Positions 1,773-7,016 of a DNA stretch of 7,016 nucleotides are shown piece after piece (positions within the stretch are counted from its first letter, which is position 1; each line of letters starts with the position of its first letter). Location: the IMG/VR virus record IMGVR_UViG_2724679058_000006. One strand, written 5' to 3'. A program made the translations under genes and the position numbers. The stretch comes from a virus (taxonomy: Duplodnaviria > Heunggongvirae > Uroviricota > Caudoviricetes). The notes below the pieces were generated by a model that ran no database searches, was not told the origin of the DNA, and worked only from the letters and a program-made list of their open reading frames with translations.

Positions 1773-2066
1773 TCACCCACGATTAACCAACAGCCAGACC
1801 AGCAGACACGCCACCACCGGCACAGCAAAATCCATCAGGCTTGCCACATCCCACGCGCGCGGATCAAAACCGCCCCACCACGGCATATTCATTCGCTTGC
1901 CATGCCCGAACATTTCGATCCAGCGATATTCTGCCTAGGTGTGTTCACGCGCAATGAAGAACGTACAACCGGCTATCGCCCCGTAAGCCCAGTTCCCGGT
2001 AAAAAGACCAATCAGTAGCTGCGCAGCCACAGCACAAAGCGCATGAAGGAAAGGTGTTATATCCAT
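1773..2066 (-). pseudogene. Small membrane protein gene (97 codons, two predicted transmembrane helices) interrupted by an in-frame amber codon at codon 44 (plus-strand cta at 1935..1937)
   Basis: Minus-strand ATG at 2064..2066 preceded by AGGA with a 5-nt spacer. Translation: MDITPFLHALCAVAAQLLIGLFTGNWAYGAIAGCTFFIAREHT-TAG-AEYRWIEMFGHGKRMNMPWWGGFDPRAWDVASLMDFAVPVVACLLVWLLVNRG*. Both halves are in the same frame and each contains one hydrophobic helix. The antisense plus-strand ORFs in the track translate to low-complexity Pro/His/Arg-rich sequence. Confidence 0.5.
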
Positions 2067-2108: not shown

Positions 2109-3149
2109 TTATTTAGACGCAAGCGCCGCCTCAATTGCAGATAATCTTTGTCTTAATTCTGCGTTTTCTTCTTCCAGTGCTGTTATCCTGTCGTCTGACT
2201 CTCTGGCTACCTGAACAAGCAAACCCGTTACGCCTGAGTAATCAACGGTATAGTATCTTTCTCCCTCTTCTCCATCAGACCCATTGTCCCCGCTCTTGTA
2301 CTTTATTGTGCTACCAACTGATTCAGGGATTGCATTAAGTGCCTCTTGCGCAATAACGCCAGCATAAGGCATACCATTAGACTTGAGACGGTAAGTATAC
2401 CCATTCATTAATCTGATGCGCTCAGTGGCATTATCAATAACCTGAATGTTTTCTTTAAGATCTCTGTCCGACACCTGGTCGAATGATGTAGCCTTGCATG
2501 ACCCGTTTATCTCAAGCTGATAGGTTTTATCTGGGTTCCTTTGTGCATAAAACAAAAAAAGCCCGCCATCATCCCTAATTTCATAAACAACTGGACGACT
2601 GGAATTTCCCCATAATAACGTCGACACACCAGAATACGCCGTACCTTGCGTGTTTAGTGTCATGGTCGACCCGTGATTAGCATATTTGATCTGCAATGAG
2701 TCTGTATTATCAAACTTAATAAGCGCGTTACTTCCCCGCACACCATACGACATGAGACAGTTCCCCATCTTAAGGTAACCATCACTGCCTGGAAAAATTA
2801 AAGTTCCTCCGTAAAGATCACTAAAGTCCCAAAAGATACCTTTTGTCCCGTTATGTGTGACGATCCTCGTCATTGTATCTTTAGTACCATCAATATTTTT
2901 TCTGGTATATATGTCACTATAAGCGTTTTCCGTTTCACCAGTCTTATTTGACAAATGCAGCTTACCGCTGAATATAGTTCCAGTTGTTGGCAATGTTTTT
3001 TGATCATAGATTACATTGCAATAACCATTCCATGTTGTTTTATTGTCTACATAAGATTTTGTTGCGTAGTTTCCTTGATCGGTTTTTAATTTACTAACAT
3101 CCGATTTTAGCGTTTTGATGTCATCAGGAATTACTGTTTTTGTAACCAT
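2109..3149 (-). CDS. Tail fiber/tailspike-like protein (346 aa) with C-terminal peptidase-S74 intramolecular chaperone (autoproteolytic) domain
   Basis: RBS GGAG 7 nt upstream of the ATG at 3147..3149, and only 12 nt downstream of the preceding ORF's stop. The C-terminal ~120 aa (residues ~227-346, nt 2112..2471) carries the S74 hallmarks: SDRDLKENI, then YRLKSNGMPYAGVIAQEALNAIPESV, then YYTVDYSGVTGLLVQVARE, then a terminal coiled coil ITALEEENAELRQRLSAIEAALASK. The N-terminal ~226 aa are Gly/Thr/Asn/Tyr-rich, typical of beta-rich fiber tips. Confidence 0.8.
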   Translation of the reverse strand: MVTKTVIPDDIKTLKSDVSKLKTDQGNYATKSYVDNKTTWNGYCNVIYDQKTLPTTGTIFSGKLHLSNKTGETENAYSDIYTRKNIDGTKDTMTRIVTHNGTKGIFWDFSDLYGGTLIFPGSDGYLKMGNCLMSYGVRGSNALIKFDNTDSLQIKYANHGSTMTLNTQGTAYSGVSTLLWGNSSRPVVYEIRDDGGLFLFYAQRNPDKTYQLEINGSCKATSFDQVSDRDLKENIQVIDNATERIRLMNGYTYRLKSNGMPYAGVIAQEALNAIPESVGSTIKYKSGDNGSDGEEGERYYTVDYSGVTGLLVQVARESDDRITALEEENAELRQRLSAIEAALASK

Positions 3150-3161
3150 TGTCTTACTCCA

Positions 3162-3431
3162 TTAAGCCCATGTCCTTACATGCTGATCTGTCGTAATGAA
3201 AGGCATTAAAGAAGATATGTTTTTACTGCTATCAACAATCCTCATGTTTACGAAAAAACCACCGCGATCAATGCCCGTACATCTTTCGTTTTCTGGCTCC
3301 TCGTAATCAATAATGCAGCCAATAACATCAACAAGAACCCCATTTTCTTCTTCAAGACTGAACAGGCCACTGTCATATACAATTGCGTTAAACTGTTCTC
3401 TGTTATCGAATCGTAATGTTATATCCCGCAT
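3162..3431 (-). CDS. Hypothetical small acidic protein (89 aa), translationally coupled to stf; candidate fiber assembly or adaptor factor
   Basis: Its ATG (3429..3431) overlaps the stf stop codon (3431..3433) in a TAATG arrangement. Its stop lies 12 nt before the next gene's RBS. No motif recognised; function unknown. Confidence 0.55.
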   Translation of the reverse strand: MRDITLRFDNREQFNAIVYDSGLFSLEEENGVLVDVIGCIIDYEEPENERCTGIDRGGFFVNMRIVDSSKNISSLMPFITTDQHVRTWA

Positions 3432-5789
3432 TATACGTATTCCTTAAGCTGCGTATCTGACAATGCTCTGTTCCAGAAACGGAGGTTTTTTATATGACCA
3501 TTAAGGTGTCGTAATCCTGTCGTCGTTTGCCCCCCGATTCGAATCACGGCTGCTTCACGAATATATTTCCATACTGTTTTGGTTTCAGTGCTTATATGCT
3601 TATTTGCAAATGAGCATGTCATGCCGTCAGCCTTAACCCTGAATCCCATAACGAGATCTCTTACTCCGCATGACTCATATACACGCCGGTTAGCCCCGCC
3701 TATATCGCAATACGAATAACCATCCTGACTGATAGTTCCAGAAGAACCAAACCCCATAATAAATGGGCCTCCGGACTGGTGATTTTCTGAATCAATGACA
3801 CGCGGTGCAGCATTATGAGAAATAAACCAGTTTTTATGGACTTCCACCATGAACGTAAAAGGCATGGTATACATATTTTTCATCAGCGGAAATTTACATA
3901 AATCTGATGCACGAGTCGCTGGCTCTGTTGTCGTTATGATAAAGGAAGTTGCACAAGCACCATACTCGAATTGCGGGGTGGTTACTTCTATCCAGTCACC
4001 TGTTGCAAAAGCCCCCACTGCTCTGTCGGCTGCAATTTGCAGCTGCGTACCAACCATTCCCCATTCTGGCAGACATTTCAGTGTTGCCTGAAAATATATC
4101 CATCCACTACCAGGGTCGATTTCAAAGTTTGCTGTTAATAGCTGGGCATTACCACCCGTAATTTGTAGTTCATGAGTCTGTAATGACAAATAGGCGTCAC
4201 AAAGGAAAGTGTATCCTTCCGAGTTATACCGTTCAAAACGGATACGTGCGCGAACATTGAGATCACTTCTTACCCTGAACGACGCGGTAACATACGGACC
4301 TTTACTGTACTGATCATCGCCAGTCACATCTATGCCTTTATTACCAGCAACTGTGCATATATTTCTCCCTGTTGTCGTTCCTGCTATGTCGCTTCCTACT
4401 GTGAAACGTCCATATTTAAACTCAAATTCATCTGTTGATGATGTTACAGATATACCACCGCTTTTATTCCACGCATCAGGATTAAAACTATTTACGAACA
4501 TGTTTGTTCGCTGATTCTCTATCAGCAAACCATATTTTTCAAAACGAGGAACGTTATTCCCTGCCACGGTAATATGCCCGGACTTATCAATATACGTTGC
4601 TGATGAAGCGCGGCTAAATTGGCATATGCCATTAACAGGCATTGTTATTTCATCACTGCCGATGGTTATTGTTTTATAGCCCGGGGCATACCCTGTTATC
4701 GCTTCCAGAGAATCATTCAAGGGTAGCCAGATATCAGGAAGCGGAGGGACTGAAGCAGGATCAGCGGCATCTTCTGCAATCCGGGCTGCATTCTCTGCTC
4801 TTGTTGCGGCTGACGTTGCTTCTATCTCGCTGGCTGCTGCTTTTGTTTCACTCGTCTTTGCGTTAGTTTCACTGGTTTTTGCAGCTTTTTGGCTATTAGC
4901 TGCCGCACTTGCAGAACCAGCTGCGGCACTCTCGCTTTGGGCCGCTGCATCCTGACTGTTTTTTTGCCGCAGTTTCGCTGGCTTTGGCATTCGTTTCGCT
5001 GGTCTTCGCTGCCGTCTGGCTGGACTTTGCGTTAGTTTCACTCGTCTTCGCAGCTTTCTGGCTGTTAGCCGCAGCAGTTGCTGATCCAGCTGCTGAAGTC
5101 GCAGAACCGGCTGCTGCGCTCTCGCTTTCAGCTGCTGCAGCCTGGCTATTTTTCGCCGCAGTTTCACTGGCTTTGGCATTCGTTTCGCTGGTTTTCGCTG
5201 CCGTCTGGCTGGACTTTGCGTTGGTTTCGCTCGTCTTTGCGGCTGTCTCGCTGTTTTTCGCGTTGGTTTCTGATTTTTTGGCTGCTGTCGCGGAGTTTGC
5301 CGATGCAGTCTGCGAGGACGCTGCCGCCTGTGCGCTGTTAGCTGCATTCGTTTCTGAGGTTTTCGCCGCGTTCTTCGATGATGCCGCTGCAGTTTCGGAT
5401 TTCTTTGCCACCGCTGCGCTCTGAGAGGCGGCTTCGGCGTTGCGTGCCGCTTCTTCCACCATTGCCTCAAAACGACGCAATGCCTCCGGCATGACATCAT
5501 CTTCCGTCATGGCACCGAGAAAATCATTCAGCGTACCTGGTCTGGAACCTTCATAGACGGTAATGGTTCCGGCATGTGAAGGCGGAAAACCTTCAACCAG
5601 CAGGGTGACGCTGTACTGGCCATACTCAACATCCATGCTGTAACGCCCGGCTTCATCCGGATTTTCAGAGGCCACCGTGTTCACCAGTACCGTGGTGCTG
5701 TTACGCTTTGCCTTCAGTTGAATAGTGCAGTTCTGTATTGGTTTTCCCGCACCATCTTTCAGCACACCTGAGATTTTTACTGCTGCCAT
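3431..5789 (-). CDS. stf: Side tail fiber protein Stf (~785 aa if contiguous): lambda-Stf-like N-terminus, Ala/Ser/Thr/Lys heptad-repeat shaft, non-lambda C-terminal LamG-like lectin-type domain. The frame is interrupted by a 1-nt insertion in an A7 tract (plus-strand T7 at 4959..4965), so it may be annotated as a pseudogene or as two fragments (4896..5795 and 3431..5500)
   Basis: N-terminus MAAVKISGVLKDGAGKPIQNCTIQLKAKRNSTTV..GRYSMDVEYGQYSV..GFPPSHAGTITVYE matches lambda Stf from memory. GGAG lies 5 nt upstream of the ATG at 5787..5789; the GTG at 5795 used in the ORF track is probably not the start. The two track ORFs (299 aa and 689 aa) are in adjacent frames and overlap. The first ~190 aa of the 689-aa ORF are Arg/Lys/Pro/Gln-rich out-of-frame translation of the repeats. 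Removing one A from the A7 run joins the frames seamlessly and gives ..ASETAAKNSQDAAAQSESAAAGSA.., parallel to the neighbouring repeat copy ..ASETAAKNSQAAAAESESAAAGSA... The C-terminus ..GHIKNLRFWNRALSDTQLKEYV resembles the conserved end of LamG_3/concanavalin-like domains. Confidence 0.8.
4881..5240. repeat. Imperfect tandem duplication (about 169 bp and 191 bp copies) inside stf; part of a longer low-complexity region (~4760..5405) encoding 7-residue Ala/Ser/Thr/Lys repeats (AAKTSET / NAKSSQT / NAKASET ...)
   Basis: Direct comparison of 4881..5049 with 5050..5240: shared blocks gcagcttt[t/c]tggct[a/g]ttagc ... gccgcagtttc[g/a]ctggctttggcattcgtttcgctggt[c/t]ttcgctgccgtctggctggactttgcgtt[a/g]gtttc[a/g]ctcgtctt. 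Copy 1 lacks ~21 bp present in copy 2 and has one extra T in its T-run. Confidence 0.7.
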
Positions 5790-5799
5790 ATCCACTCCA

Positions 5800-5827
5800 C
5801 AAAAAAGCCCGCCTGAACCGGCGGGCT
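5800..5827 (-). terminator. Candidate rho-independent terminator after lom (minus strand: AGCCCGCC GGTTCA GGCGGGCT then TTTTTT)
   Basis: 8-bp GC-rich stem (plus 5806..5813 pairs with 5820..5827), 6-nt loop, followed on the minus strand by T6 (plus A6 at 5801..5806). Lies between the lom stop (5854) and the stf RBS. Confidence 0.6.
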
Positions 5828-5853
5828 GTCATAACACTGTGTTACCTGGCTAA

Positions 5854-6453
5854 TCAGAATTTATAACCGACACCCACGATGAAACCGTCAGTGCGCCAGT
5901 CGCCACTGCCGGAGCCTTCATAAGCAATATCAATGGCCACGGATTCGGTCGGGTTAAACTGCACGCCAGCTCCCCACGCCAGAGACGTGTTGCTGTGGCG
6001 ATCGTCATCACTTCCGGTCAGCACATCGTGCGTTTTCCCCTTGTTGTCAGTTACGCGGAGATAATCCCCGGAGAACGTCGAAACACGGCTGTAAGCCACA
6101 CCTGCCATCGCATAAGCACTGAACCATTCATTCACGCGTACAGATGGCCCCGCCATCATGCTGAACCAGCGGTTACGCACTGAATCTTCATGCCAGCGGG
6201 TATCGCTGTAATGCGTTTTTTGCTCATCTTTGGCATTGGCATAACTGAATGACGTCACCAGCCCCAGCGTGTCCGTAAATTCATAACGGTATTTCACGTT
6301 AATGCCCTTCAGGTCATCACTGCCTGGCATATCAGTATAGGTCTGAAGATACCCGGCGCTTAGTGTGGACTGATGCTCTGCTGCGCTCGCTGGCGTACCA
6401 GCGGCAACCAGCCAGACTACTGCGGACAGAATAACAGCACATAATTTACGCAT
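5854..6453 (-). CDS. lom: Lom-like outer membrane protein (Ail/Lom/PagC family beta-barrel), 199 aa with signal peptide
   Basis: N-terminal signal peptide MRKLCAVILSAVVWLVAAGTPASA. C-terminus ..IDIAYEGSGSGDWRTDGFIVGVGYKF is identical in character to lambda Lom as recalled. KGINVKYRYE and AYAMAGVA motifs are shared with lambda Lom. RBS GAGAGG upstream of the ATG at 6451..6453. Confidence 0.9.
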   Translation of the reverse strand: MRKLCAVILSAVVWLVAAGTPASAAEHQSTLSAGYLQTYTDMPGSDDLKGINVKYRYEFTDTLGLVTSFSYANAKDEQKTHYSDTRWHEDSVRNRWFSMMAGPSVRVNEWFSAYAMAGVAYSRVSTFSGDYLRVTDNKGKTHDVLTGSDDDRHSNTSLAWGAGVQFNPTESVAIDIAYEGSGSGDWRTDGFIVGVGYKF

Positions 6454-6474
6454 AATTACCTCTCGCTTTTCTGC

Positions 6475-6502
6475 AATAAAAAAGGCGTCATTTCTGACGC
6501 CC
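6475..6502 (-). terminator. Candidate rho-independent terminator after J (minus strand: GGCGTCA GAAA TGACGCC then TTTTTTATT)
   Basis: 7-bp stem (plus 6484..6490 pairs with 6495..6501), 4-nt loop, followed on the minus strand by a U-tract (plus aaaaaa 6478..6483). Lies 19 nt after the J stop. Confidence 0.6.
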
Positions 6503-6520
6503 GTATTGGGGTTATAAAAT

Positions 6521-7016
6521 TCAGCTGATACTGATGCCTGCGGTGGCTTTCTTCATCACCACAACCAGCAAATCGCTGATACTTGCTGTGGGATACCAGC
6601 CATTTACCAGCCATGCCGATACAGAAAATTCCAGTGTCATGACACCACTGCCTGCAGGCATATCAATAACACCCGTATATATCAGCGTATTATCCAGAGC
6701 CGTTCGGTTATAAATTTCAGCACCGTTTTTTCGTACTATCAGACGGCATGAGGAGTAGATATCAGTATGATCTTGCTCATGTTTAGCGCCACTGAATGCC
6801 ACCGCCGGGATAACAATTTGCCGGTCAAACGGCTGATCGTCATAAACCCTGACGGTAATGGTTCCTGATGGCCACCGCTCCGGTGCACGGGAGTCCCGGG
6901 GGAAAGCTTTGCCCACCGTTTTAACGAGATCGCCTTCAATCTGGTTCGCGGACAGTTTTCCCAGAACCCGGCAGTTCTCGTTAATCGTGACGTTGTTGAG
7001 CGTCCCGGAGTTCGCA
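6521..7016 (-). CDS. J: Tail tip host-specificity protein J (central tail fiber), C-terminal 165 codons; gene continues beyond the right edge of the window
   Basis: The frame is open to the window edge. Translation ..[151 protein letters not shown] matches the lambda J C-terminus from memory. The GTG at 6916 used by the ORF track is an internal Val. Confidence 0.9.

Follow-up and report, generated by a model that had tools for sequence, protein, structure and literature searches.

A horizontally exchanged three-part module with a LamG-type C-terminal domain in the side tail fibre of a lambdoid Escherichia coli prophage

Tail-fibre tips decide which strains can be reached by a phage or by a phage-derived delivery particle. 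Here we analyse the side tail fibre gene, stf, in a 7,016-nucleotide stretch of viral DNA (IMG/VR virus record IMGVR_UViG_2724679058_000006, Caudoviricetes; ‘the window’ denotes this whole stretch), which is the right end of a lambdoid E. coli prophage adjoining appY. Several described systems can be set beside this fibre. The Stf of Ur-lambda itself appears to use the O16 O-antigen (PMC11990801). In the T5-like phage IrisVonRoten (Bas32) a T-shaped protein, Gp24, credited with recognition of the O16 O-antigen, connects to a long proximal fibre, a statement based on predicted structures (PMC11990801), while LtfA and LtfB of phage DT57C both bind O-antigens (PMC4728585). More generally, the lateral fibres of the siphovirus groups treated here are taken as O-antigen binders (PMC8594841, PMC11990801). 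Adsorption of the Rhodobacter gene transfer agent (RcGTA) requires its head spike fibre, Rcc01080 (GhsB), a protein that attaches to the capsular polysaccharide of Rhodobacter (PMC5026251, PMC10218006, PMC7296036); only its residues 2-10 are structurally resolved, the globular part having no experimental structure (PMC7296036).

Overall, the stf product of the window consists of a lambda-type virion-attachment domain and a repeat-rich shaft, followed by 442 distal residues that, as judged from sequence comparison, form a horizontally exchanged module. This module has three parts, an adaptor (residues 1-100), a domain that we call D1 (~101-272) and a domain that we call D2 (273-442), which are laid out in the gene as follows.

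3431-5789, minus strand: stf, side tail fibre gene, 785 codons if repaired; here present as two open reading frames, 4896-5795 and 3431-5500, via a +1 frameshift
5394-5783, minus strand: phage_tail_N, the lambda-type Stf virion-attachment domain (PF08400, E 4.7e-67, 224.5 bits)
4838-5289, minus strand: Ala/Ser/Thr-rich shaft with 7-/14-residue periodicity (Tandem Repeats Finder periods of 21, 42 and 189 nt)
4460-4759, minus strand: adaptor, the start of the module (PLPDIWLPLNDSL...) and its mosaic junction with the shaft; mean pairwise identity 0.80
3944-4459, minus strand: D1, a variable beta-sandwich with homology to Rcc01080, the RcGTA head spike fibre; AlphaFold2 (AF2) predicted local distance difference test (pLDDT) about 88
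3434-3943, minus strand: D2, a LamG/pentraxin/concanavalin-A-like jelly roll, the last 170 residues of Stf

The last of these parts had been noticed in a preliminary description of the sequence, which proposed a LamG/concanavalin-type domain at the C-terminus of Stf, and this proposal is borne out by profile, transitive-homology and structure-based comparisons. The Stf frame ends GHIKNLRFWNRALSDTQLKEYV, and the motif GHIKNLRFWNRALSD aligns to the C-terminus of the Pfam Laminin_G_3 profile (PF13385), with a match of 20.9 bits (E 4e-4) that covers profile positions 103-150 only, which are the last 48. Thus the likeness of the final residues to the C-terminal strand of that family (G-x-I-D/K-x-V/L-R-I/F-Y/W-N-R-A-L-S) is real, though sub-threshold; the motif is conserved in sets of 32 and 42 homologues and matches the pentraxin motif in the PDB alignments. 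When the last 170 residues were searched with phmmer against 1.84 billion cluster representatives, 84 proteins were returned, comprising full-length matches to many tail-fibre C-termini and partial ones to giant proteins with many domains. The partial matches lie around the C-terminal motif, and Pfam identifies the giant proteins as genuine multi-LamG_3 proteins (E 1e-26 to 1e-91). Full-length homologues of D2 exceed the PF13385 threshold (P0148 with 44.8 bits, P0139 with 31.3 and P0168 with 30.0), and a 32-sequence D2 profile run against PDB sequences matched concanavalin-like folds only, specifically a Limulus SAP-like pentraxin (E 0.007), C-reactive protein and the CBM40 of NanA. The AF2 model of D2, built from a 42-sequence alignment reaching true LamG_3 proteins, has a pLDDT of 82.4 and shows, over about 150 residues, a beta-sandwich jelly roll of the LamG/pentraxin type. 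Independently predicted BFVD structures for the fibres of phages rolling and EdH4, which are homologous, superpose on D2 at template modelling (TM) scores of 0.86-0.87, with many viral ‘LamG-like jellyroll’ proteins coming next, and CBM40 sialic-acid lectins and pentraxins are among the solved folds nearest to D2. By the phmmer matches, the homologues that pass Pfam, the PDB profile matches and the structural comparison, which are four independent lines, D2 is a divergent relative of Laminin_G_3 and not a scored member by the family cut-off. A literature search for coliphage fibres of this type found no paper that describes LamG domains in them.

Other parts of the preliminary description need adjustment. 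The interval 3434-4100 that it gave to the LamG domain holds for 3434-3943, while the remainder takes in the final ~52 residues of the domain before it. Its expectation of beta character agrees with DSSP on both models, and the richness in Gly, Thr, Ser and Asn that it saw amounts to a mild enrichment and not a strong one (G 9.5, T 9.3, S 7.2 and N 5.4%). The wider anatomy had been missed: the LamG domain makes up no more than the final third of a module with three parts.

D1, the middle part, is homologous to the RcGTA fibre. The NCBIfam model NF048003 (GTA_spike_fiber) matches with 48.3 bits against a cut-off of 36 (E 1.7e-12) over profile positions 1-181 of 182, and this match spans 3908-4525, which is the end of the adaptor plus all of D1. 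In a single-sequence search the sole PDB relative of the distal part was likewise Rcc01080 (6tb9_F3, E 0.0015). The homologous stretch measures about 205 residues in NF048003 and about 250 in the 6tb9 alignment, and both proteins are beta-rich. D2 of the window is preceded by a [FY]I.T....TR[AN][SA]D linker that is conserved and common to the GTA fibre. There are also clear differences, as Rcc01080 is a single chain on the capsid that lacks a LamG domain after its TRAAD motif, and its sequence identity to the module of the window is low. Our first AF2 run covered the whole 442 residues with 23 homologues at ~50% identity and gave a confident D1 and a pLDDT of ~25 in the LamG region. The Foldseek search used this half-confident first model of the distal part and is therefore usable for D1 only; it returned the tail fibres of Pseudomonas phages Pa193 and E217, then the Bacteroides sugar-binding protein BT_4411, CBM22, CBM4 and the Nictaba lectin. 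The adaptor has low pLDDT when modelled as a monomer.

The three parts also differ in how they vary. Pairwise identity among the ~50%-identical homologues averages 0.80 in the adaptor, 0.59 in D1, which is the lowest, and 0.82 in D2, and more distant relatives retain the adaptor and D2 but have D1 replaced. Since D1 is both the most variable part and the one swapped in distant relatives, it behaves as the putative specificity-determining part, with D2 as the conserved part.

Upstream of the module the protein is of lambda type, in line with the lambda Stf chassis that had been proposed. Specifically, the N-terminal 299 residues are 61% identical to lambda orf-401 and carry phage_tail_N, and as in lambda the gene has an Ala-rich shaft and stands after J and lom. 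The distal 442 residues show no relationship to the tip of lambda Stf (orf-314, BLASTP E 1.1), as the preliminary description had held, and the gene does not show a lambda/T4 gp37-like tip with an adjoining Tfa/gp38-type chaperone gene. The fall in G+C content toward the distal part that had been seen by eye is also present, with values of 0.56 at 4896-5395, 0.42 at 4100-4699 and 0.444 at 3434-4100, and of 0.39-0.40 in the two genes downstream of stf; the step from 0.56 to about 0.43 lies at a junction near 4745, where the similarity to lambda stops as well. Other fibre chassis align from residue 3-6 of the distal 442 residues, that is from ~4745-4750. Since homology to the exchangeable module begins there, the junction falls just past the repeats, and its earlier placement near the heptad repeats was sound. 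The tandem of two lectin-like jelly rolls with a junction near PLPDIWLPLNDSL would thus offer a rational cut site for fibre swapping.

The module is ordinary and widespread. It is already catalogued as PHROG 1419 and NF048003, functionally uncharacterised, and it is among the commonest Stf endings in E. coli prophages, yet its domains are vaguely annotated. The same ~440 residues are found at 35-55% identity on lambda-Stf N-termini, on P2 H-type proteins (PF12571/PF03406), on lateral fibres of T5-like phages, Dhillonvirus, Queuovirinae and Drexlerviridae, and on one rV5-like fibre. It was found in 218 phage records and 343 IMG/VR stretches, and one search gave 3,170 protein clusters. The allele of the window occurs in 127 complete E. 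coli genomes at a coverage of at least 80% and is intact in many of them. In the inducible phage PhiR55_1, part of a temperate-phage panel (PMC13190303), the distal 442 residues are 99.8% identical and sit inside an intact 785-residue Stf. A profile search of genome contigs gave five loci, from Escherichia ruysiae, Escherichia sp., Buttiauxella and one short contig binned as Collinsella. The last of these (JAGZNZ010000051.1, 2.8 kb, in a Collinsella metagenome-assembled genome, Actinomycetota) carries a module homologue at 35% identity and is probably a mis-binned enterobacterial phage fragment. Literature searches by accession and name for the Lambda_2G7a/ev207 phages returned nothing relevant, and those on tail-fibre receptor-binding proteins returned a paper on T4/lambda families with gp37/gp38-type tips and a T5-like ‘long tail fibre’ engineering paper on pb3/pb4.

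The genes that follow stf bear on how the module may work, and are arranged as follows.

3162-3431, minus strand: 89-residue accessory gene (phrog_1361, E 1e-30), whose start overlaps the stf stop (TAATG)
2109-3149, minus strand: second tail fibre gene, 346 residues (phrog_4563), N-terminus MVTKTVIPDDIKTLK
2316-2471, minus strand: Peptidase_S74 intramolecular chaperone domain, C-terminal in the 346-residue fibre (PF13884, E 2.3e-12)
1773-2066, minus strand: pseudogene of the 97-residue membrane protein that usually closes the cassette, with an in-frame stop; annotated ‘internal stop’ in NZ_CP033850
1643-1753, minus strand: remnant of a Tfa-type tail fibre assembly protein, a 37-codon C-terminal fragment

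We examined this cassette in 80 IMG/VR loci. An open reading frame of ~80-110 residues and of one family (pattern M[RK]D.TL[KR]F...G[YF][YF]VN[VM]RI...LR.W[AM]) follows the fibre gene at an offset of -7 to 0 in all 80, and homologues of the 89-residue gene also follow the module on five other chassis, T5-like, Dhillonvirus, Nonagvirus, rV5-like and lambda-like ones being named. The TAATG overlap between the stf stop and the start of this reading frame suggests translational coupling. Searches of Pfam and NCBIfam (noise only) and a profile search of PDB found no relative of the 89-residue protein, for which chaperone and connector are candidate roles; the BASEL annotation labels one such small gene a putative chaperone. 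Fibre swapping would need this obligatory 90-residue partner gene to be moved along. In 35 of the 80 loci a second fibre gene begins 10 nt past the small gene and its product starts M[VA]T[KS]T[VN]IPxDIxxLK. The other loci have a 97-residue membrane protein gene (37/80) or nothing (at least 6). The same N-terminal motif begins the protein directly downstream in the window, PhiR55_1, IrisVonRoten, KarlBarth and ESCO3, while the remainder of the second fibre differs between loci (227-574 residues, mostly with S74 chaperone domains). The 346-residue fibre has no virion-attachment domain of its own, and its first 15 residues look like a docking peptide.

This arrangement departs from that of lambda, where Stf is accompanied by Tfa; in the window the next gene is not a Tfa-type chaperone and the 89-residue gene plus second fibre are found instead, with the Tfa remnant further on at 1643-1753. 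The closest match is IrisVonRoten, which has a long proximal fibre, a 92-residue protein and the T-shaped Gp24 in the same three-gene order. The C-terminal 434 residues of its fibre are 51% identical to those of the window, the small proteins are 33% identical, and the third protein starts MVTKTVIPTDITKLK. It differs in having a T5 pb1-type N-terminal chassis and in that the third protein is a dual-domain fibre of 574 residues and not one of 346; the published discussion of IrisVonRoten covers the second fibre only and does not describe the D1-D2 module. DT57C resembles the window in having two fibre genes, the second of which lacks a virion-attachment domain and is proposed to hang on the first. 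In contrast to the window, DT57C uses phiEco32 gp14/gp15-type docking sequences, its LtfA ends in an S74 chaperone and not in D1-D2, and a search with the N-terminal motif of the second fibre gave no DT57C or phiEco32 match.

Taken together, we lean toward a function in which the module binds cell-surface polysaccharide, with D1 setting specificity and D2 providing a second lectin-type surface, and on the homologies and predicted folds described above a glycan is a likely receptor. The adaptor would join the module to the shaft, and D1-D2 would bind O-antigen, lipopolysaccharide (LPS) or capsule reversibly and multivalently as the primary receptor. The variable D1 would account for most of the strain specificity, with D2 as the more conserved surface. 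The module would be made together with the translationally coupled accessory protein of ~90 residues, and in this prophage a second fibre probably hangs on the module to give a branched fibre. The architecture thus leads to a concrete and testable hypothesis on glycan receptors and branched fibres. The preliminary description had set a glycan receptor for this tip against an OmpC-type receptor for lambda Stf. Given the apparent use of the O16 O-antigen by Ur-lambda Stf, that contrast with lambda is less sharp than it assumed.

Several observations weigh against this assignment. D2 of the window is under the PF13385 gathering score (20.9 vs 27.6 bits), and the alignment behind its confident model includes the true LamG_3 proteins themselves, recruited at significant E-values. 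LamG-type domains also mediate protein-protein contacts. D2 has no assignable sugar- or Ca-binding site and no conserved ligand residues, the model coordinates not having been inspected, and no ligand-binding residues have been mapped onto it from Laminin_G_3, pentraxins or CBM40. Its conservation equals that of the structural adaptor (0.82 vs 0.80), which is unusual for a specificity-determining tip. Rough K-12 and E. coli C have yielded module-bearing phages, and O-antigen binding can therefore be no more than facultative. Finally, a second fibre gene follows, and therefore D2 may not be the functional tip.

This last point leads to a serious rival account, which we hold to be possible but less likely, in which Stf is the proximal segment of a branched or serial two-part fibre, where the adaptor, the LamG domain and/or the 89-residue protein hold the MVTKTVIPxDIxxLK sequence of the 346-residue fibre, the tip that really binds the receptor belongs to this second fibre, and the LamG domain serves chiefly as a platform for protein-protein contacts. 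Such an arrangement would agree with the high conservation of D2 and with the second fibre itself, which lacks an attachment domain and yet keeps its first ~15 residues conserved in lambda-like, T5-like, Dhillonvirus and Nonagvirus phages, beyond which the proteins diverge. The N-terminal motif occurs in 57 phage records and lies 290-470 nt downstream of the module in 8 of the 8 that could be cross-checked. There is also precedent, both in IrisVonRoten, where the 51%-identical fibre is the long proximal fibre joined by Gp24 (PMC11990801), and in the branched lateral fibres of the T5-like phage DT57C (PMC4728585). Against this, about half of the 80 loci (those with the membrane-protein gene or with nothing) lack a second fibre although module and small gene are present, indicating that the module works on its own, and the attachment of a second fibre rests on a predicted-structure statement (PMC11990801). 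The lectin-type function and the holding of a second fibre are compatible with each other, since all the data can be accommodated by a branched fibre that has two specificities, like that of DT57C (PMC4728585). A further extension of the same idea, which we regard as speculative and rather unlikely, is that the adaptor, the LamG domain and the ~90-residue protein make up a universal socket used on six chassis types (lambda-, P2-, T5-, Dhillonvirus-, Queuovirinae- and rV5-like, with a second fibre seen on four), into which interchangeable distal fibres plug via M-V/A-T-K/S-T-V-I-P-x-D-I-x-x-L-K, D1 adding a second, independent glycan specificity. If true, such fibres would amount to a portable, branched side-fibre system with two receptors, nowhere described at the molecular level. 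The comparison of loci with and without a second fibre speaks against D2 as the socket, since D2 differs least between them (82% identical) and the small protein differs most (42%), a pattern that genetic linkage could also explain.

The remaining alternatives concern the ligand and the fold. That the LamG domain binds a protein receptor such as an outer-membrane porin, and not a glycan, would follow the classical link of lambda Stf to OmpC; we consider it improbable given the CBM40 sialic-acid lectins and pentraxins among its closest solved folds, the homology of the partner domain D1 to a capsule-binding protein, and the link to O-antigen of the lateral fibres in phage groups that carry the module (PMC8594841). 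A chance resemblance of the C-terminal motif without any LamG-type domain, or else a concanavalin-like glycoside hydrolase, is largely refuted and very improbable. The sub-threshold Pfam score of the window’s own domain and the pLDDT of ~25 in the first AF2 run would fit a chance resemblance; the homologues that pass the family threshold and the later model have been described above. As to an enzyme, a GH16-like activity is rejected, since no ExDxxE-type motif is present in the 170 residues and the top structural matches are non-enzymatic.

We return to the putative polysaccharide-binding module in the context of its own gene, which is frameshifted here. From position 327 on, the window is matched at 99.985% identity by NZ_CP033850. 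In minus-strand order it holds the end of J, lom, the frameshifted stf, the 89-residue reading frame, the 346-residue fibre gene, two pseudogene remnants and appY, and the features that bear on the stf reading frame and its surroundings are these.

5854-6453, minus strand: lom, with the J C-terminus upstream of it
4957-4963, minus strand: frameshift site, a T7 run (A7 on the coding strand) in place of the T6 of intact copies

Alignment to intact stf copies shows one surplus T in the 4957-4963 homopolymer. The ‘repaired’ Stf of 785 residues that the preliminary description had supposed exists as such, since an intact protein of this length is encoded in both phage PhiR55_1 and NZ_CP033850. The 7-base run is present in none of 5,426 complete E. 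coli genomes, where the best 71-nt matches are 98.6% identical, which corresponds to one gap. The idea of a common or phase-variable frameshift is rejected on this ground, and the change is either a private inactivating mutation, comparable to the frameshifted stf of lambda PaPa, or a sequencing or assembly error. As stf is interrupted by this one-base insertion, no full-length fibre would be made here, unless the insertion is a sequencing error. Being a frameshifted copy of a well-represented allele, the stf of the window adds nothing surprising by itself. Within the shaft, 4911-5255 is a 189-nt (63-codon) tandem duplication at 87% identity, and the frameshift falls inside it.

Two further observations concern annotation and the far end of the window. 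At 4632-6989 of NZ_CP033850, RefSeq splits the intact Stf of 785-787 residues into a ‘head spike fiber domain’ coding sequence and a partial N-terminal pseudogene, the frame being open throughout; the PGAP name for the identical protein is that of NCBIfam NF048003. Positions 1-326 are an IS1 fragment with an insB-like reading frame at 18-311, where NZ_CP033850 has the ompT-appY intergenic flank, and between appY and the prophage remnants the segment 1100-1650 is very AT-rich (G+C 0.24-0.27) with a strongly negative GC skew.

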